Shown here piece after piece: positions 17,586 through 28,900 of a stretch of DNA of 64,000 nt. The stretch is from Sarea resinae (Eukaryota). The notes beneath the pieces are model-generated. The model was not told the origin of the DNA. It did not search any database and saw nothing but the letters and a program-made list of their open reading frames with translations. The DNA lies in NCBI GenBank assembly GCA_026026165.1, contig JAPEUD010000046.1, positions 62,001 to 126,000 on the forward strand. The letters run 5' to 3'. The first letter of the stretch is position 1; each line of letters starts with the position of its first letter. The translations under genes and the position numbers were made by a program.

Positions 17586-18739
17586 AAGAACGAAACGGCA
17601 GAGGTTGATCGCAGATCGCAGATGATATCGGAGGGGTCATACATAGTATAACTATGCACGGAATAATGATGCGTATGATCTCTGGACTCAACTTCAGTAG
17701 AATAGGGCGCATATTGAGGCAGGTGGGTTTGGCCCGATTGGGATCTAGTTTTGCAGGCTGATGGAGGGTGGCGGGTGCATTCGTCGACCCCCGGTGGAAT
17801 GAGGATATCTGATTGGAGAGTACGTCGCTGGAAGAAGAAGCTTTGGAGGCGTCCCGGACACAGTACGAGACGAGCTTCGTATTCGTAGCCTTTTTCGACT
17901 AGCGGGCCCTACGGGGTAGCAGGTATCCGTCGTAGTGCAGGACCGAGTCGATACATGATTTCTAGTGTGCGAAGCGGAATGAAGATGTGCATCCCTTGAA
18001 CATTTGTACATGGTTATGAATGCATGGCAGAGGGAGTCTGAAGGCAAAGTGGCTGAGGACCCTACTCTACGGAGTACTACATGCAGAAGAGTGAGAGTAC
18101 GGAATACTACGTAGGCGCTGAGAGGCTGTGCTGCGCGACGTGTGACTGCTCCGGGTCGCAAGGGGTGGTTCCGCCTGGTCCCATTGGTCTCCGCTGCCCT
18201 TCGGCCTGCTTCCACCGCCCCGGCCCCGCCATCTGAGGAATGGAAAGAGCACTCCGTCGCCCGTACCGCCACCCTTAGCCGCGTGGCTTGTCACTCGGAT
18301 GACCTAAAAGTAGATCCCCCAGCGCCAGCGAGCTGAGCACCGGCGCGGCGCTGAGAGATGAGAGGTGGAGAACGGAAGCCTCCGTCCGATATCTACGTAC
18401 CAAGTGACTAACCCAAGGAGAACCCCCAAACACTCACTCAAACATTCAAAGTCCCAAACCTGCGACACCACCTCTTCTCCTCTGCAACTCGATCCAAAGT
18501 CGGTCGATCTTCTCTTCCCCATACTTCAAAGAGGCCTCCCGCTTCTTTTCACTCGCGCCCCCTCTCTCTGTAACCACTTGACACCATCTCGTTATCCATC
18601 GCCGTGTCGCGCTCGCATTCCATATCCAAGACTCCTGTATGTTCGATCTACTTCACTTTCCCCTCACGTCGTCAGCTCGATTGCAGGTCCGATATCTAAC
18701 ACGTCACCGTCTTTAGTTGAGCTACCTCACTCATTCGCC

Positions 18740-19208
18740 ATGTCGAACCAACAATACTACGCCCCCCCTCAACCAGCGTAAGTCGCTGTCCGACCTAGCT
18801 TCGCATCAAATGCAAGATCTCATCCATTTGACATCTGGTACTGACGCCCGTCGCAGCTATGGTGGCTACCAGCAACCGCAACAGCCGTACTATCCCCAAC
18901 AAGTACGCTCCTATCCGCCCCTTCTTTCAGGAGGCACCCCAATCTAATCAACCATCGCAGATGCAATATCAACAAGGTCCACCGCCTCAGCAAGTCATCG
19001 TGAAGGAGCGCAAAAACCGCGGCTGTCTCGAAGCCTGGTAAGGCCCCCAAACCCCCAAGTCACCCTTGGCATTTCGCCTTCAAATCTTCTCAGTATCAAG
19101 GCTAATGGCTTCTCGAACAGTCTCGCCACTCTCTGCTGCTGTTTCGTCTGCGAAGAGGGCTGTGATTGTTGCGCCGACTGTTGCGAATGCGCTGAAGATT
19201 GCTGTTAG
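18740..19208 (+). CDS. Small CYSTM-type protein (Pro/Gln/Tyr-rich N-terminus, Cys-rich C-terminus). Exons 18740-18777, 18857-18902, 18961-19037, 19121-19208; probable 5' UTR intron 18637-18716
   Basis: Three canonical introns give MSNQQYYAPPQPAYGGYQQPQQPYYPQQMQYQQGPPPQQVIVKERKNRGCLEACLATLCCCFVCEEGCDCCADCCECAEDCC*. GCLxACLAxLCCC is the CYSTM signature. Confidence 0.9.
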
Positions 19209-21125: not shown

Positions 21126-24100
21126 TCATGCCTCCTTCACCAAATCCCTGGCTTCCTTCTCCAAGCCCTGAAGCCAGCCCTTCCCACTATTTCCGTCCGA
21201 CACCGTATCGTCCAACCAGGTCCTCGCCTTCTCGACCATGAGTTCCCACGCCTCCTTCTCGTCTGCAACCCTGAGCTCCAAGAAAACAATCGCCAGTAGC
21301 GTCGCAAACACGGACTTGGTGGTCTCGTGGTTCGTATCGAGCGTGATGACCTGTGAGGGGGATGAGAGGACCCTGGAGACTGACTGGGCGACGGTATCCG
21401 CGGATAGCTGGAGGGTGTCGAGGAGAGCCGGTGCCAAGTCCCAGGATCCGGAAAAGGTTTGTAGGCTCACCAGGATCTCGAAAGGTGTAGGGGTGCTGCT
21501 GGAGGACGAGGACAAGGAGAACGGTGTTGCACCGTCGAATACTGACATTTTCTTCTTCTTTTTTGCCGACGAATGGGCCGCATTGTTGCCTTCGTCTGGG
21601 AGTGACGCTGATGCTGATTGTACGGCTGCACCAGGTGAGGGAGACATTTGTGCGGGAAAAGTCGAAAGCTGCGGTTGAGGCTGATACAGTGGCATTTGAG
21701 TGCCCTCTGCCTTGGCATAAAGTTGGGGGGCTGTGGCTACGGCTGTGGTGCCAAATGTCCCCAAGTTAGTACCTTGGGCTTGGGGCAGATCGCTAATATC
21801 TTGCGATCGGCTTGCTCCGAACAGACCGCCTCGTCCCTGAATTGTCGGAGTGGGGGCGCCACCCATCCATGGGGTACCCTGTCCCTGAGCCATTGGAGAA
21901 GCGGCGTTGCCGGAGACGGTGCTGAAGTCGGCTCCTTCCCGCCCTGACGGTACCGGGGGTGCGCCCGTGCGTTGTAAATTTCCAAACGATACTGACCTGC
22001 GGGCTGCTTTGCTAGCAAGCTGTTTCCTAATGCCACCACGGCCCCATCGTGATGTTTCTCCCACTCTAGGCATTCCGATATCCGAGGTGCTGATCTCTTC
22101 CCAGGACTCCGATGTTGAATTCGAATCGTCGTCATCGAATGTTGTATTTTCATCGGAGTTGTCCTCTCGATCCTTTTGATCACTCTTTTCTAGTGTCTCA
22201 CTTCCGGCTCCGTATATGGATACATGTCTGCCACTATTCCTGGAGTTCTTAGACTCCCTTTCAACGGCAACAAAAGAGCACCATTTTCCTCCGACTTGGT
22301 ACTTGACGCCTAATCTGACGGCCTCTCTTTCGACCAGATCGTCCCATTTCGATTCAACTTTGTCGTTGTTACCCTTGATAAGCTTTCCGCTGGTGTCCTT
22401 CAGGCCTATCATCCATCCGCGACCTTCCTCGAGATCAAGGATGGCCTTTTTTGCGGCCAGTTGGTGGATCGTCTGGCAGGGTTGTTCGAGTACTTGCACA
22501 TCAATTTCAAGCTCCAGTGGACCATGGGGAGAAATGCCACTGAGTATGACTGACTTTGGTGTCTGCAATGTCTCTGAGGAGAGCAGAAGGTAGACAGTTG
22601 TCCTCGTGAAGGGGAATAAGGGTGGTATGACAGCTGGCGCTTGGAGCACTCTCGGTGGAGTCAGGGATGGAAGATCAGCGTACTTGTTTTTCGGTAGAGC
22701 GGAAGAGTTGGACGTTTCCCTATCGGGGTCGGCATTGTCGTCAAATAGTGAAATGGGAGTAGATACGGTGGCTCCAGGCCGGATTATTTTTGACGTCGGA
22801 GTTCCTTCCAGGTCCACCGGCGAGCTTTCATTGATTCGTTCCAAGACACCTTCTCCTTCTCCGTCGGAGGGATCGTATTTCAATTGTAGGCTGTAGTTCA
22901 TGACGTGAGGCGAGAGTCCCCCTTTCAGCATGCGAACAACTTTACTGTCAAGTTTCTCCTTTTCACCTACGACCTGCGAGAAGCCGTTACCAGCCCTGGC
23001 GGCGCCTTCCAAAAGGGAGTGAGATATCGCATCGCCGATGCCCAAGGTGAATAAACGAATAGGCTTTGTCGCATCGCCGACTTGTTGATTGATCATGGAA
23101 AATAATGTCCACTGGCCCCGTATTTCCCCGTCGGTGAGCAGCATCATCTCTAAAGCAAGATCCTTGTATCTTCGCTCTATAGTCTCCTTAATTGGTCTAA
23201 CCATATCTGTGCCTCCATAATTAGCCGAAAAACTTTCAACGTGTTGTACGGCCTCATATAGCGTATGCTGGTTGTATCCCTGGCTCTTATCCCATAGGAA
23301 AGAAGATCGCGAGCCGAACGAGCAGATGTTAAACTTCACCCCGACCGGCAGAGACTTCAGGAAGACTTTCATAGCTGAGACCAAGGTCTGGATTTTGCCT
23401 CCCATGCTGCCACTGCGATCAGCAATGAAGACAATTTCTGGGCGAGATTGCGGGAGTGAGAATTTTGGAATGAGCGTGACCATGAGGGCTCGTTGGTTAG
23501 GGATCGATGAGTGCGTTTCTAAGAGCGCTTTTGGGCGGCCACGCTCTTCTGCCAACACAAGGAGCACAAAGTCTGCGTCCAGTGTGGCTTCTCCAAGCGA
23601 AAGGGTCGCAGAGGCTCTGCTAAAGGAAGGTGGGTCCTTGAGCGCAACGGACGTGTTGCCTATTGTGACGGAGATTGGATGACTCGGTGATTGGATTCCC
23701 TTGATGAAAGACCCTTCCTCTATTTCTGCATCAACCGTGATCTGGATACTAGAAGCTGTCGATGCAGAGACTGCCCGAGCATTGCTGGGCTGGGTAGGAA
23801 AAGGTCCATGTTGTCCGTACCGTGGAGCTATAGCTGTTGGGATGGTGTATCGAATTCCACCAGCTTCTGCATCATGTTTCAGTTCACCAAGATAGGTAAT
23901 CTCAACGATAACCTTCTTGCCGGCGGGGATGTTGCCAAGTTTGGTGGTGAATACATCAGAGCTCTGTTTGTCCTCTTCCAATAGCCCGGCGGTCTCCCCT
24001 CGCGAAATAGTTTGGTCATAGACCGCTTGGGCTTCCTGCTTCTCTTTGACAACTCCCTTGATACGGCGCACACCAATGCGGCAATTGAAGCCCACCACGC

Positions 24101-24341
24101 TGACACCGTCATAGAGCGGGAAAGTATAAACGGCTTCCTTGATTACATCAGTCTCCGACGGATTGATGAAAGTCTGGGTAAGCAGCGTTCTCGAAGTAGT
24201 AGACAGAATTGAGGCGTGGACCTGGAGATCGACTTGGGGTAGATATTGCTTGACATGCCCATGACTGTAAGGGACAGTATAGTAGCAGCCACAAAGGGGC
24301 AAAGGAACGACTCGCTGATGCTGACGAACGAACCCAGACAT
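21126..24341 (-). CDS. VIT + von Willebrand factor A domain protein (vWA5A-like), 1071 aa, intronless
   Basis: VIT region (LTQTFINP..EAVYTFPLYDGVSVVGFNC..AGLLE..DVFTTKLGNIP), MIDAS motif FIADRSGSMG, LLTDGEI, RLFTLGIG, and a C-terminal LQTFSGSW..WELMVEKARTWL block typical of the family. Confidence 0.93.
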   Translation of the reverse strand: MSGFVRQHQRVVPLPLCGCYYTVPYSHGHVKQYLPQVDLQVHASILSTTSRTLLTQTFINPSETDVIKEAVYTFPLYDGVSVVGFNCRIGVRRIKGVVKEKQEAQAVYDQTISRGETAGLLEEDKQSSDVFTTKLGNIPAGKKVIVEITYLGELKHDAEAGGIRYTIPTAIAPRYGQHGPFPTQPSNARAVSASTASSIQITVDAEIEEGSFIKGIQSPSHPISVTIGNTSVALKDPPSFSRASATLSLGEATLDADFVLLVLAEERGRPKALLETHSSIPNQRALMVTLIPKFSLPQSRPEIVFIADRSGSMGGKIQTLVSAMKVFLKSLPVGVKFNICSFGSRSSFLWDKSQGYNQHTLYEAVQHVESFSANYGGTDMVRPIKETIERRYKDLALEMMLLTDGEIRGQWTLFSMINQQVGDATKPIRLFTLGIGDAISHSLLEGAARAGNGFSQVVGEKEKLDSKVVRMLKGGLSPHVMNYSLQLKYDPSDGEGEGVLERINESSPVDLEGTPTSKIIRPGATVSTPISLFDDNADPDRETSNSSALPKNKYADLPSLTPPRVLQAPAVIPPLFPFTRTTVYLLLSSETLQTPKSVILSGISPHGPLELEIDVQVLEQPCQTIHQLAAKKAILDLEEGRGWMIGLKDTSGKLIKGNNDKVESKWDDLVEREAVRLGVKYQVGGKWCSFVAVERESKNSRNSGRHVSIYGAGSETLEKSDQKDREDNSDENTTFDDDDSNSTSESWEEISTSDIGMPRVGETSRWGRGGIRKQLASKAARRSVSFGNLQRTGAPPVPSGREGADFSTVSGNAASPMAQGQGTPWMGGAPTPTIQGRGGLFGASRSQDISDLPQAQGTNLGTFGTTAVATAPQLYAKAEGTQMPLYQPQPQLSTFPAQMSPSPGAAVQSASASLPDEGNNAAHSSAKKKKKMSVFDGATPFSLSSSSSSTPTPFEILVSLQTFSGSWDLAPALLDTLQLSADTVAQSVSRVLSSPSQVITLDTNHETTKSVFATLLAIVFLELRVADEKEAWELMVEKARTWLDDTVSDGNSGKGWLQGLEKEARDLVKEA

Positions 24342-25961
24342 TGCGAAGGTAAATAGAGTGGAGAGTCTCCTGCATAAATAAGTTTTTCCCGTAGAAGGTC
24401 ATATTCGCCATGTTGGACATGTCGGGTGTTTAAATAACAGAGCGGTAGAAAAGAGAAAGCTGCTGCCTGGTGAGCTTGCCTCTTGTCTGCTCCTAGACTT
24501 ATCCGAGCCAAGGCATGACCTTACGAAGCTGCACGAGCTCGGCTGGCCGCATGATTGTCGTTATGCCCCTCATGGGGCCCCTGAGGGGAAAACCATTCAC
24601 CCTCGTGAAACCATATTCCTCCCGTCTCCGTGAGTAACCCGAAGCAACGATTCTAGCGAAGCCCAAACCTCCACTCTCTGATGTCAACGAGGAAACTGTA
24701 CGGGGAAAGCGAGTAGACGCGCGCTTGCACAGACCTTCTCCGAGTAGAAAAGTCTGGGTGACTCATCAATCTCCACATCTCGATTCGAGCACACAGGCCC
24801 GAGGCCACGAGCCAAGAATGACTGCGTACATATGTGGGAAGGTAAACAAAACGGTGACTTAGTCATCATTCCGGGCGTCGTCCCCGTTGCGATCATGCGG
24901 CCTTTGCTACTGCGTACTCCTCTACTACCTTATTACGACGACGACATGGCTATGATCGCCTTTCGGGCAGTTGTGGTCTCCAGCTGGCCTTGATGTGGCA
25001 ACGATCAAATGACGACAGCTCGTTCTTTTCCCGCAAAGTATTTCCAAGTCTCTATATGAGTCTATCAAAAGACTCACGATGGTTGAATCAACCTCAAGTG
25101 TGCTATATTGATCGACATTACTCGTCGCCTTGTGCGATTTGTGTCTCAGGTGGCCGAGCAGCTCTATGCCAGCGCACAAGTTCTCGGCTTGCTCATCGCT
25201 CTAGGGTCAGTCCCGTGACAGCAGAGACATGCCCTCCTTCCCCCAAGTTCCCCTTGCCCCCCCTCCCCCTAACCCAGGCCGAGCCGTCGATGCCCGATAA
25301 TCTTCCACAGGCACCCAACCCACTGTCTCCACGCATGAACGGTGGGGCGCGAAGCTCTTTCGGATCGAATTTCTCGAGGCGACCGACCAGATGGCTTGAT
25401 TCTTTGGCAGCAGCAGTATCAGAAACTGTTTTCTTTCCTCCCTGTGCGACGCTGCAGTTGCCTTCGAGGTCTCTGCCAGCGCCTAATTCTTATTCTGCGA
25501 CTCCTCGCAATCCCATTTGATTACCTGCCACCGAAGCGAGCAAGTCGAAGCTTGACATTTGTTTATGATGCATCTCCAGTGTCGTGCAATGCTGCATGCA
25601 TCTATCCCGCTCGCGCATATCGACCGTCTCATTGGAACATATTTGATGTCCCCTGCTGCGTTTAATCTTTTGCGCGAATGCATACCCGGTCCTCGTATAC
25701 GTCATTTGAGGGGTCCAACCTCCCGTCGTTATCTCCCCGTCGCGGCCACGTTATGCCAGTTCTGGAAAAATCTGCACCCTTGAGCTGAAGTGCATGTTTG
25801 TATTTAACAACGACTACTGCTCACTGCTGCCACGCAAGCAGATCTAGATCGAAGCAATGCGACAACAGAAGCCCTGCTGGTTGCCGGAGCGAACCTGATA
25901 AGAGTCCCAGCTCTGATCCGCTGATTATTTGATTGTCCAACTTCGCACATCTCCTTCCATC

Positions 25962-28900
25962 ATGCCGACGATATCAGTGGCACCTTCGCGTGCCCACAGG
26001 CTTAAGGACAGAGAGTCCCGCAGCAGCGCACCAAGAAGCAGCAGCAAAGGCTCCCGGAAACTCTCGAAATCATCCGCTCGCACTCCTCCAAGGAGCCCAT
26101 CAAGAAGCTCGGGATCGATATACTCGCAGCAGAACTTCACTCTCGATACGCTGCCGCCCCTACCAGAATCGACACCGGCATCCCCAGCATCAGTCTCCTC
26201 AAAGATCCACCCAGGTCGATCGACGCCAATCGACTTGGCTCGAATTGGCTCTCCTCCCGTCCCTCGAGCACTCCAAGCTTACGTCGAAGACGACCAGAGT
26301 GACGAAGAGACGAGGCCTTCACCGTTAGCTGCCGTGTCTCCAATCAAGCCAATTATAGAGCCCGTTGAAAGTTTGTCGAAATCGGATCCAACAGCGTCGG
26401 ACGATTCAGGGATACTGCCGGAAGGGGAGTTGCTACCACCAGCAGAGCAGACGAGATCCGCAGAACCGGCACAACCAGCGATCCCGACACCGCAATCTCG
26501 CTCTCCTGAAGCTACCCCATCGGAGCCAGATACTGAGACGCCTCTACCGACAGCACCAAATCCCCCCGAAGAAGACATCCCAAAAGCGCCATCCCCAGCA
26601 CCCTCTCAAGCCCTGCCATATCAAAGTGTCCCACCTAGCCCAGCTGTCCCGCCATACTTTGAACAACGGCTCTCGCCTCAGCTATTTAGCCCAGCCTTTC
26701 CCTCAACATCTTACCCCACATCACCTCCGATCCAAGGCTACACTTCACCGCATCAGTATTATTCACCGCCATACAATAACCCGGCCTATTATTCAATGTT
26801 CCAACCCCAAGGATACTCGCCGGCTCCCGGATATCCTGTCAATCCACACCAATTCGCACCTCAATACCAAGCCCCTCAATACCAATCCCCTCAATACCCG
26901 GGGGCTTACCCTGGCTTTGTGCCCCCTACTCCCGCTGCTATGTTCTCCGCCAGTCCAGCGCAAAGCCCCTCACTTCAGCGAAACGGTTCGGTAGGCTCGA
27001 GGTCTAGCCTACATGCAAACGGCTCAGTCGGCAATCCCTCGACACCTCCTGCGGCTCGCAATGATGAGCGAGCGCCCACTATTGACGGTGGCGGAGGCGG
27101 AGCAGCGGGGCCAGAGGATGCTGTCGACCTTCTTCAACGTGTCCAGAGCGCCATACCTGACCTGCATGCACTTCTCAATCGGTATCGTGACACATACGGT
27201 CAACTTGGCATGAGAGAGGAGACTCTTAGGAAGTCCGAGTCCGAACAAGCGGACGCAATCCGACAGAAACAGCAATACATTGATTCACTTGCTAAGCAGA
27301 TGGAGGACTCCTCCAACAAACATTCCGCCGAGACCAACAAATTGCGGCTCGAAATTGGAAATCTTGAGGAGAAGCACAAGGAGCTCCAAGAGAGCCTGGA
27401 AGCTACTAAGAAGGCGAAAGAAGAACTCGAGGAGGCCAAGGCTTCTCTAGAAAATGACAAGATGGATTTGGAGAAGCAGCGGAAGCTGGAGGCAGAAGCT
27501 CTGGCTCAGGAGTTTGTCAAGTTCAAAAAGGAAGTCACGGATGGATATGCGACCGAAAAGAAGTCTCTCGAGGATAAGCTGGCGGCTGAGTTGAAAGAGA
27601 AAACGGATGCTTTCGAGGCCGAAAAGACTGCCCTGGCAAAAGCTCATGAGGAAGCGATGAAGTCTCTCGAGGACAAGCTCGATGCTCAATTAAAGGAACA
27701 GGCAGACTCTTTTCAGACAACGAAAGCTGCCATAACCAAAGCCCATGTGGAGGAGAAAGAAGCGTTGAGAAAGGGCGCCGCAAAACAGAAGCGCGACATG
27801 GAAGCTGGTTTCGACAAACTGAGAAATGAGTTGGAAAGCAAGCTGAATGGGACGCAAAAAGACCTCGAAGAGGCATTGAAGAAGGAGCGCGAAAGCCGTG
27901 AGGGATGGAGCAAGGAGCGTGAAGAACTGGTAAGAGGGTGGGAAGAAGAGAGAACAGCGATGGGTTCTGGCTGGGAAGAGCAGCGTGCTGTCCTCACCGA
28001 GCACCATGAAAAGGAGAAGGAGGACCAGCTGAAGACGTGGACGGATCTCCAAGCTGAGATGACGAAGAAAGCAGAACAAGAAAGAAGTACATGGGAAGAT
28101 GAAAAAGCCGCGCTTCAAAAAGGATGGGATGACGAGAAAGCCAAATTTGAGAAGGCGTACGGGGAGTTGAAGAGTATGACAGAGCATATGGGAGCTGAGA
28201 AAGATAGGTTGCAGAAGATGGTGGAAGCTTTTGGTGAGGTGACAGACCTAAAGAGCAAGGGCGATGCGTATTAGTAAGTTTCGAGAGATTTGTGTGATGT
28301 TGTTCTTGCCTTCGATGCTTTTGTTCTGTTTTCATTTCCTTTGCAAATTGCAGTATCTCGTAAAGCCATGTTGTCTAGCAATCAATTCATTCGCTCCTCA
28401 GATTTCACCTGCAGTTATCATCTTGCACACAGGCTGACCGCAAAATCGGTATTTTATCCAGTTTAGACAACTTCAGCAAGCTCACCAAACTCATAGAATC
28501 GGTCGCCTCGGAATATTTTCAAAACATTCCCGTCCCTCCCCCCGAGCACATCCTCAACGAAATCCCTGAAACCATCCCCTCGTTTCTCTCTAACACGCCA
28601 TCCTCCCGTCACCTCCGCACGGCCTACATCCAATACAAGATTTCCACAATCCTCTGCTACCGGGTTTATTCACCCTTCCTTTTCTCTCTCGGCCGCCGCT
28701 ATGACAAGGCGGATACCCTCTTCCAAGCCATGTCGAACGACCTTCGTAAGAAATCTACCCGTCGTGAGGCTATCTGGCGCCAACATACCCTTTATTCAGC
28801 GTACACGGCAGCTAACGCCAAGGAAACTATCAATGCCGCGGCCGGGGCCGTAGTCGAGGAGATCGTGAGCCACATCAAACACTTCACGGATCCGAAATAT

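Follow-up and report, generated by a model that had tools for sequence, protein, structure and literature searches.

An internal histone H3-tail-like peptide in the disordered tether of a VIT-vWA protein from Sarea resinae and its recurrence in fungal relatives

The gene and domain architecture of the VIT-vWA protein

We analyzed a 64,000-nucleotide stretch of the genome of the fungus Sarea resinae, class Sareomycetes (assembly GCA_026026165.1, contig JAPEUD010000046.1, positions 62,001 to 126,000; henceforth the window), which encodes a VIT-vWA protein of the VWA5A-like type with a short peptide resembling histone H3's N-terminal tail in the linker between its folded parts. All coordinates given for this gene are those of the window and lie on its minus strand. 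The gene occupies an uninterrupted stop-to-stop open reading frame (ORF) of 1090 codons at 21126..24398, with the stop codon following position 21129 and an ATG at 24341 probably serving as the start codon. The identical public record is P0002, a hypothetical protein of Sarea resinae with 1048 residues. At 24270-24341 its gene model begins MSG|HGHV, thereby implying a 69-base intron whose removal eliminates residues including CGCYY; since the family consensus keeps CGxYY at this place, this intron was probably annotated in error, and an ORF running without interruption from the ATG at 24341 is likelier.

Pfam recovers the VIT (E=1e-37), VIT_2 (E=2.9e-20) and VWA_3 (E=6.6e-27) families in the translation, with the VIT domain at 23892-24230 and the vWA domain with its metal ion-dependent adhesion site (MIDAS) motif at 22974-23438. 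The latter reads DRSGS...GGTD...TDGE (in the form LTDGE), in agreement with the first-pass annotation of the window, which had placed the H3-like peptide in a MIDAS-containing VIT-vWA protein. An AlphaFold2 monomer was built from a 109-sequence family alignment (mean predicted local distance difference test score, pLDDT, 74.9; predicted template modeling score 0.75) and resolves three parts. The folded body (22236..24260) comprises VIT, vWA and then beta/helical parts, with residues 5-679 mostly above a pLDDT of 90 and strands and helices alternating in Rossmann-like fashion at residues 279-466. It is followed by a disordered tether (21501..22235; P0002 residues 680-924) with pLDDT ~30 and no secondary structure, and by the helical C-terminal domain of the VWA5A-like family (21129..21500; residues 925-1048), which displays six helices spanning residues 930-1047 at pLDDT >90 and belongs to a domain with the motif LQTFxGSW...WEL in the family consensus. 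The protein is thus a member of the VIT-vWA/VWA5A-like family, with all the sequence-level features that define it, and is not a histone, because it lacks the histone fold: Pfam gives no match to PF00125. Its N-terminus, MSGFVRQHQR, presents no obvious hydrophobicity on reading. A metatranscriptome run (X2) contained 6% of the sampled words of the gene, and two of its contigs, at 21126-21269 (0 differences) and 21331-21546 (8 differences), cover the 3' end and the C-terminal domain, short of the H3-like motif.

The H3 17-28 copy and its setting in the tether

The H3-like peptide lies mid-tether at 21993..22028 (P0002 residues 749-760; codons AGG AAA CAG CTT GCT AGC AAA GCA GCC CGC AGG TCA). 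Translation and comparison with fungal H3, represented by fused gene models with a complete H3 (P0179/P0175) and by yeast H3 chains of the PDB (e.g. 6gej_A), confirm what had been read from the letters: 11 of the 12 residues are identical to fungal H3 17-28, Ser22 included, and the sole mismatch is an arginine at the K27 position. The BLOSUM62 local score of the window peptide against H3 1-45 is 61, whereas 40 shuffled family linkers reach at most 38. In a HMMER search of the PDB with a 37-residue peptide from the window, H3 chains come out on top, yet at just E=0.1. Directly upstream, at 22029..22070, a decayed relic of 14 residues corresponds to H3 residues ~2-16, as recovered by HMMER against yeast H3 2-34 and by a local alignment to H3 2-37 (score 61); its residues R..ET.R...GG are aligned by HMMER to R2, T6, R8 and G12-G13 of H3. 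Bar this faint relic, everything upstream of H3 residue 17 has been lost. The window copy is what decay has left of a tail copy that was once far longer (H3 2-31 or more), with the K4 and K9 parts gone. A tblastn search with full-length H3 found nothing in the window at E<=1e-3 and, in a set of 80 metagenome loci of the family, only matches of tail length. The AlphaFold2 monomer, in which the entire tether has pLDDT ~30, displays no intramolecular docking of the motif.

Several other short motifs accompany the peptide, namely an acidic tract (DREDNSDENTTFDDDD; 22125..22172), an acidic-aromatic motif, SESWEEIS, that fits the pattern acidic-[WFY]xx[LIV] (22089..22112), three FG-type motifs, SVSFGN (21978-21995), RGGLFGAS (21810-21833) and NLGTFGTT (21744-21767), and a basic cluster with the lysine run SAKKKKK (21549..21569), which resembles a classical nuclear localization signal (NLS). 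The acidic tract and the lysine run had both been described as flanking the peptide; both are indeed present, the run of lysines lying ~140 residues downstream rather than adjacent. The tethers of relatives cannot be aligned with one another except at short motifs, and of those that recur across the family the window tether contains the H3 core, the three FG-type motifs and the acidic-aromatic motif.

Recurrence of the tail copy in fungal relatives

Searching with the window protein's C-terminal half retrieved 1026 relatives at E<=1e-3, of which the best 120 form the basis of our counts; no close orthologue of the window protein was present among these 120. A second search, directed at the tail with the tail region of a Trichoderma protein as query, was restricted to proteins of 628-1999 residues, and the best 120 of its 172 matches (E<=10, 229 candidates) added 20 VIT-vWA proteins for a total of 140. 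Frequencies in the family accordingly refer to the best 120 of the 1026 relatives together with this tail-directed sample.

An H3-like segment scoring at least 45 against H3 1-45 (shuffled maximum 38) occupies the same place of the tether in 22 of the best 120 of the 1026 relatives, and 24 of the 140 family proteins reach a score of at least 100. Among those best 120, the 12-mer with arginine at the K27 position recurs identically in Lasiosphaeris hirsuta, a Sordariomycete, and with 11 of 12 residues in five others. The longest matches extend further: H3 5-31 is unchanged (27/27) in Trichoderma and Pleosporales proteins, as in many of the 20 added by the tail-directed search, the copy in P0235 spans H3 2-43, and the Trichoderma stretch retrieves H3 from the PDB at E=9e-12. 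The named carriers belong to Sareomycetes, Sordariomycetes, Dothideomycetes (Pleosporales and Mycosphaerellales) and Candelariomycetes. The H3 likeness of the window peptide is therefore not due to chance, as it recurs at a homologous position in relatives. Proteins of the Ilyonectria group retain relic forms of the type 'ARKS.GG...KKKSSAAP', with scores of 34-44. Further, one metagenomic locus (L010:925-3765) holds the VIT and vWA domains, an H3-like segment, heptads of the RNA polymerase II C-terminal domain (CTD), a segment resembling the ribosomal P-stalk and the C-terminal domain of the family in a single ORF of 947 codons, establishing that tail copies are real DNA and not an artefact of gene models; the window, L006 and L007 likewise each present one ORF.

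In a FastTree phylogeny of the 140 proteins, near-perfect tail copies occur at at least five separate places, a distribution that this tree, computed from all well-filled columns, cannot resolve between a single gain followed by many losses and multiple gains. The window protein sits on a long branch in a poorly resolved neighborhood. Six members from Mortierellomycota (P0049, P0054, P0066, P0096, P0112, P0113), none with a tail copy, nest within a Dothideomycete clade of the same tree, for which an artefact, contamination or gene transfer may account. The tail copy is also partially duplicated in tandem at aa 714-775 of P0154 and aa ~700-744 of P0156; in the latter the join coincides with H3's two ARKS motifs, as slippage or unequal exchange between them would produce.

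A conservation island with variable residue states

A conservation map of 27 non-redundant copies in ungapped register shows identity to H3 of 0.63-0.93 at positions 16-28 (S22 and A24 0.93, A25 0.89), of 0.26-0.70 at positions 8-15, of 0.52-0.67 at positions 29-31 and of 0.30 or less from position 32 on. The mean frequency of the top residue falls from 0.80 in the core through 0.51 in the shoulders to 0.18 in the flanks. At the nucleotide level, a scan of metagenomes yielded 80 loci of the family, seven of them with a tail copy, two of these being identical; the codon test used the window and five independent loci. Over the 15 pairs of this small sample (10 codons, for residues 17-26, in six sequences) the summed pS is 0.91, i.e. 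saturated, as opposed to a pN of 0.185. Saturation of synonymous sites with retention of the peptide implies long purifying selection on the peptide and argues against its recent capture. Thus, the check that had been proposed at the outset, namely whether the peptide forms a conserved island in a variable linker, came out in favor of such an island. Changes of K4 to R/N and of T6 to P are common to several classes, which speaks for ancient vertical inheritance and not for a fresh capture. These shared changes, the AGY codon for Ser22 in five of seven DNA copies and the Ilyonectria relics together fit old vertical descent with repeated decay. These data show that the copied H3 peptide on the flexible tether is under purifying selection centered on residues 16-28, and that within the family it behaves as a module that can be dispensed with.

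The first-pass annotation had named the peptide a K27-to-R form of the H3 tail. This does not hold as a fixed feature: in 25 non-redundant aligned copies the K27 position is occupied by K in 17, R in five, Q in two and P in one, and arginine is a single transition away from lysine (AAG to AGG). Other lysines of the tail differ in how well they are retained, with K found at the K4 position in three of 14 copies, at K9 in nine of 23 (M in four and I in one; the position is often M/I/A/R), at K14 in 14 of 24 (K or R in 17 of 24), at K18 in 21 of 27 and at K23 in 19 of 27. In the Trichoderma copies, M, L, V or R takes the place of K4. Dothideomycete copies show methionine or isoleucine at the K9 position in an otherwise perfect context, as in P0230, P0117 and P0213 (ARMSTGG) and P0204 (ARISTGG), with P0231 reading ARASTGG. 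Histones with K-to-M changes are known, and substitutions of K9 by M/I are known to jam SET-domain enzymes.

Other copied peptides in the tethers of relatives

A census of 130 linkers (79 non-redundant), with motifs counted by simple patterns, uncovered further segments that resemble conserved peptides of unrelated cellular proteins. One of these, found in 12 of the 79 linkers, corresponds to the C-terminus of the ribosomal P-stalk: the stretch at aa 783-807 of P0154 (AKEEEAEESDEDMGFGLFD) matches residues 96-114 of human P1 at E=1.3e-4, and also P0 and P2, among PDB chains, and the C-end of Pfam Ribosomal_60s at a sub-threshold E=2e-5. These copies are internal and match the extreme C-terminus of P0/P1/P2 (..EESDEDMGFGLFD), usually followed by DGP. 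Further P-stalk-like carriers include P0078, P0026, P0006, P0230, P0075, several Fusarium proteins and the metagenomic loci L010:925-3765, L073:6475-6921 and L009:6111-6803. When long proteins with a P-stalk-like stretch were sought, seven of the eight matches (E<=10, 55 candidates) were VIT-vWA proteins.

Copies of the H4 tail were detected at L009:6495-6608, at L073:6733-6846 and in the linker of P0032, with the L009 segment (SRGGRGLGRGGAMRHRKV) matching H4 peptides at E=5e-4. They read GLGRGGAMRHRKV and similar, with M, F or I at the K16 position in the three VIT-vWA copies and R at K5, K8 and K12 in the L009 copy. An H4 variant with GGRFRHRK is found in one VIT-vWA protein and in an unrelated family of ~970 residues (P0226). 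RNA polymerase II CTD heptads (YSPTSPT/G repeats) are present at L010:3157-3300 (E=2.5e-49 against RPB1), at aa 1106-1119 of P0077 and at the end of the L009 ORF. An R-SNARE motif of ~35 residues, without its membrane anchor, marks the start of the tether in P0076 (aa ~705-750; VAMP4 E=2e-4, also Ykt6 and Snc1). Such synaptobrevin/Snc/Ykt6-like segments are also seen in P0044, P0060, P0074, P0036, P0059 and P0077, i.e. in the Ilyonectria/Dactylonectria group and some Dothideomycetes, and a precomputed PF00957 assignment exists for six proteins among the best 120 of the 1026 relatives.

GLFG-type repeats are found in 29 of the 79 linkers, with sub-threshold matches to Pfam Nucleoporin_FG in relatives, and no linker 5-mers of the family are more strongly enriched than GLFG-type words. 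The acidic-[WFY]xx[LIV] pattern, which we take to be an Atg8-interacting type (Atg8-interacting motif/LC3-interacting region, a putative naming), occurs near the start of the linker in 15 of the 79 non-redundant relatives versus 4.3 expected by shuffling, in forms such as DDFEELS, DDEFEIVD, EDWEMVE and EDWEFLDE.

Functional interpretation and its alternatives

H3-tail mimicry remains the natural reading of the peptide, as the first-pass annotation had held. The purely chromatin-signaling role that it attached to such mimicry is too narrow, because the same linkers carry non-chromatin hub peptides, i.e. the P-stalk, CTD, R-SNARE and GLFG copies. We propose, with confidence that is about evenly balanced, that the H3-tail copy works as a mimic docking (or substrate, or bait) motif for readers of that part of H3. 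An ancient copy of the H3 N-terminal tail, comprising approximately residues 2-31 or more, would have been inserted into the tether of a VWA5A-like protein of filamentous ascomycetes, and the 12 residues in the window would be its surviving core, which is maintained by purifying selection. On its flexible tether the peptide is predicted to be bound, and possibly modified, by proteins that normally recognize H3 16-28, and such binding would either bring these partners to the VIT-vWA scaffold or divert them from histones. The H3 copy appears to be one among the interchangeable modules of a 'display linker', alongside the H4 tail, Pol II CTD, P-stalk, R-SNARE and GLFG copies.

Several points weigh against this proposal. 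The window copy is weak by itself, with E=0.1 against PDB chains and the K4, K9 and K14 parts lost. It is also internal, without a free N-terminus, such that readers needing the free N-terminus of H3 cannot engage it. In the sample of 140 family proteins, 98, including that of Neurospora crassa at 21, score below 45, which implies that the H3 module is dispensable for the core function of the family. The Pfam matches of the additional modules, checked in 11 chosen proteins, all stay below gathering thresholds, and the codon sample is small. Finally, a conserved basic peptide could be merely an import signal.

This last possibility, in the form of a histone-type import signal, is the strongest specific rival: the peptide would be an H3-NLS read by a karyopherin of the Kap123/Kap121 (importin-4-type) kind, which would carry the ~115-kDa protein into the nucleus. 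It accounts no less well for much of the conserved core, and we hold it to be possible, if rather doubtful. In many linkers the tail occurs together with basic clusters and with FG repeats, the latter being binding sites of karyopherins. Of the blocks in the fungal copies, ASKAAR is retained best (0.70-0.93), K23 is kept in 19 of 27 and the K14 position is K/R in 17 of 24; the window keeps ASKAAR, with G-R-G ten residues upstream. In the Kap123-H3(1-28) crystal, as described in the text of PMC5677370, order is confined to 12-GGKAPR-17 and 21-ASKAAR-26, whose K14 and K23 occupy two lysine pockets. The same text designates H3 1-28 as an NLS, tested with GFP reporters and with a minor effect of K14R, and gives the Kap123 NLS consensus as XSH-K-XSH-(X)6+-K, where XSH is Gly or Ala (PMC5677370). 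Held against this consensus, the window has the second site as S-K-A and the first as G-R-G, with R instead of K. However, residues 18-20 (KQL), which are not read by Kap123 in that account (PMC5677370), are conserved like the contact residues (0.70-0.81), and H3 5-11 and 29-31 are letter-perfect in many copies, far past a loose consensus. Likewise, K16 of H4 enters a Kap123 pocket (PMC5677370), yet it is lost (M, F, I) in all three VIT-vWA H4-like copies seen. Moreover, the linkers already have classical-looking basic clusters, and none of the P-stalk, CTD and SNARE copies is a signal for import.

Three narrower alternatives bear on particular features of the peptide. A decoy or pseudo-substrate for chromatin enzymes and readers (PRC2, acetylases, Aurora kinase), in which R at K27 would matter as a non-methylatable mimic, agrees with the retention of the K18, K23 and S28 equivalents in the window, with K at the K18 position in 21 of 27 copies, with R-R-S-V fitting the consensus of an Aurora/Ipl1-type site, with M (four) or I (one) at the K9 position of Dothideomycete copies and with the presence of internal H3 tails on the SET-domain proteins P0166 and P0203. 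We nevertheless judge it unlikely, as the residue at K27 varies and R is not its fixed state (K 17, R 5, Q 2, P 1), R is one transition from K (AAG to AGG) and not a change of the inhibitor type, and the non-chromatin modules of the same linkers favor a wider logic. Alternatively, the tail copy might be a cleavable bait, i.e. a protease site where a cut would separate the VIT-vWA body from the C-terminal domain, thereby switching the protein on or off. Yeast H3 is clipped near A21/S22, and ITIH heavy chains, VIT-vWA relatives, are matured via C-terminal cleavage; in the copies considered here conservation peaks at the core KQLAS-KAAR, which sits on an exposed tether joining two folded parts. 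This possibility would also fit the autoinhibition proposed for Dictyostelium Vwa1 from over-expression of its domains in the text of PMC10539598. Still, the conservation reaches well past any plausible cleavage site, and FG repeats and CTD heptads are better known for binding than for cleavage, which makes this account improbable to us. The decay of the upstream part in the window, and the many relatives with only traces (the Ilyonectria group, scores 34-44) or nothing, might finally suggest a functionless relic, an old H3 coding insertion in neutral decay. The codon data disfavor it, with synonymous sites saturated while the peptide is kept, and so do the island of 0.80 versus flanks of 0.18 across four classes and the identical 12-mer in a Sordariomycete; we consider it very unlikely.

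The proposed docking role can be extended to the tether as a whole. We put forward, as a speculative extension that is more likely wrong than right, that fungal VWA5A-like proteins might act as sensors or sponges with multiple baits and constitute a eukaryotic 'integrated decoy array' in which the H3 17-28 peptide of the window would be one bait. The tether would show the most conserved and most targeted peptides of the cell, from the H3 and H4 tails, Pol II CTD heptads and the P-stalk C-terminus to the R-SNARE motif and GLFG repeats, often plus a motif of the Atg8-binding type. An effector, toxin, protease or capsid of an invader or competitor would bind or cut the tether instead of the hub, and the C-terminal domain might thereby be freed from the VIT-vWA body or the complex be sent to autophagy. 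The C-terminus of the P-stalk is a docking site of ribosome-inactivating proteins.

Comparison with known systems and implications

The closest model is the fungal H3 tail itself (residues 1-45), with which the window shares 11 of 12 residues and relatives up to 27 consecutive identical residues (5-31), with similarity over 2-43. The VIT-vWA copies differ from genuine H3 in lacking the histone fold, in being internal, in rarely keeping K4 (3/14) and in often having M/I/A/R in place of K9. Histone mimicry is known from a handful of motifs of 4-6 residues, mostly viral or automethylation sites, including influenza NS1 ARSK, the automethylation motifs of G9a/SETDB1, EZHIP and JARID2. The fungal proteins share with these a peptide resembling a histone tail in a disordered region of a non-histone protein. 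In contrast to them, the fungal copy extends over 12 to ~40 residues, is derived from H3, cellular and found across fungal classes, and is centered on 16-28 rather than on K4/K9/K27. Animal H3TMs are described in the text of PMC8166343 with an N-terminal M-Z-R-X-K pattern.

As to the host family, the account in PMC10539598 places VWA5A/BCSC-1 and Dictyostelium Vwa1 in the intracellular VIT-vWFA clade B2, which includes fungi but not model yeasts. It describes for Vwa1 and human VWA5A a conserved CTD (here, the C-terminal domain of the protein) of ~100 residues after a variable stretch, and names a WD40 F-box protein as the known partner of Vwa1 (PMC10539598). The window protein shares this layout of VIT, vWFA with flanking parts, variable stretch and conserved CTD (PMC10539598). 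That account describes no histone-like or other hub-peptide copies, and the word 'histone' occurs 0 times in its main text (PMC10539598). The ordered contact segments of the H3-NLS bound by Kap123 (PMC5677370) recur in the family, ASKAAR including K23 as its conserved block and GGKAPR including K14 in many of the relatives. The difference is that the fungal copies are conserved far more strictly and over a greater length than a karyopherin needs, and that the window lacks K14.

Bait, decoy and tripwire regions are known from the bait region of alpha-2-macroglobulin, the protease tripwire of NLRP1 and the integrated decoys of plant NLRs. The likeness lies in an exposed, fast-changing region copying sequences that enzymes or effectors target elsewhere; those regions belong to a domain family other than VIT-vWA, and any immune role of the fungal tether would be hypothetical. 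A description of an H3-tail or P-stalk-tail copy in VIT-vWA proteins was not found in the literature searched, a search whose coverage excluded most subscription journals.

These observations bear on several questions. A cellular family across filamentous ascomycetes, including Trichoderma and Fusarium, carries a true H3-tail copy of 12 to ~40 residues, which selection has maintained over a span that must amount to hundreds of millions of years. The human tumor-suppressor candidate VWA5A is a relative of this family. The map marks residues 16-28, with K4 and K9 expendable and K14, K18 and K23 mostly kept, and thus offers a testable hint at the binder of the H3 tail. The tether with its four or five other hub peptides suggests a principle whereby copied cellular 'handles' are displayed on a vWA scaffold, one that we did not find described in the searched literature and that could give a first functional handle on VWA5A-like proteins. 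If true, a multi-module 'display linker' would be a new kind of device.

H3 tails in other proteins and frames neighboring the gene

H3 tails were also encountered outside the VIT-vWA family. A second conserved fungal family, of ~970 residues and 45-90% mutual identity, has a near-perfect H3 2-31 with K4 and K9 intact inside an acidic loop at residues ~420-450; its members are P0163, P0171, P0174, P0159, P0170, P0181, P0193, P0194, P0205, P0207, P0223, P0226, P0191, P0234, P0157 and P0158. Pfam gives no family or only a sub-threshold RVT_1 for these proteins, and a search of the PDB matches H3 only. Some of them are named 'reverse transcriptase domain-containing', and they may be rvt-type cellular genes related to reverse transcriptases, a tentative label. 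An internal near-perfect H3 4-31 is seen in two SET-domain proteins, P0166 (aa 1027-1053) and P0203 (aa 539-565), one of which adds FHA and 2OG-Fe(II) oxygenase domains; from their sequences these copies are candidate pseudo-substrate or automethylation sites. N-terminal H3 tails are found on HECT-SPRY, vWA-U-box and vWA-RING proteins and on a helicase (P0161, P0183, P0224, P0227), and could be gene-model fusions.

In the neighborhood of the VIT-vWA gene, the ORFs at 25917-28271, 18362-18778 and 18948-19205, all on the plus strand, match no Pfam family. The last of these, downstream of a Q/P-rich frame, has a very cysteine-rich end (CCCFVCEEGCDCCADCCECAEDCC), and may encode a small metal-binding protein or be a spurious frame.

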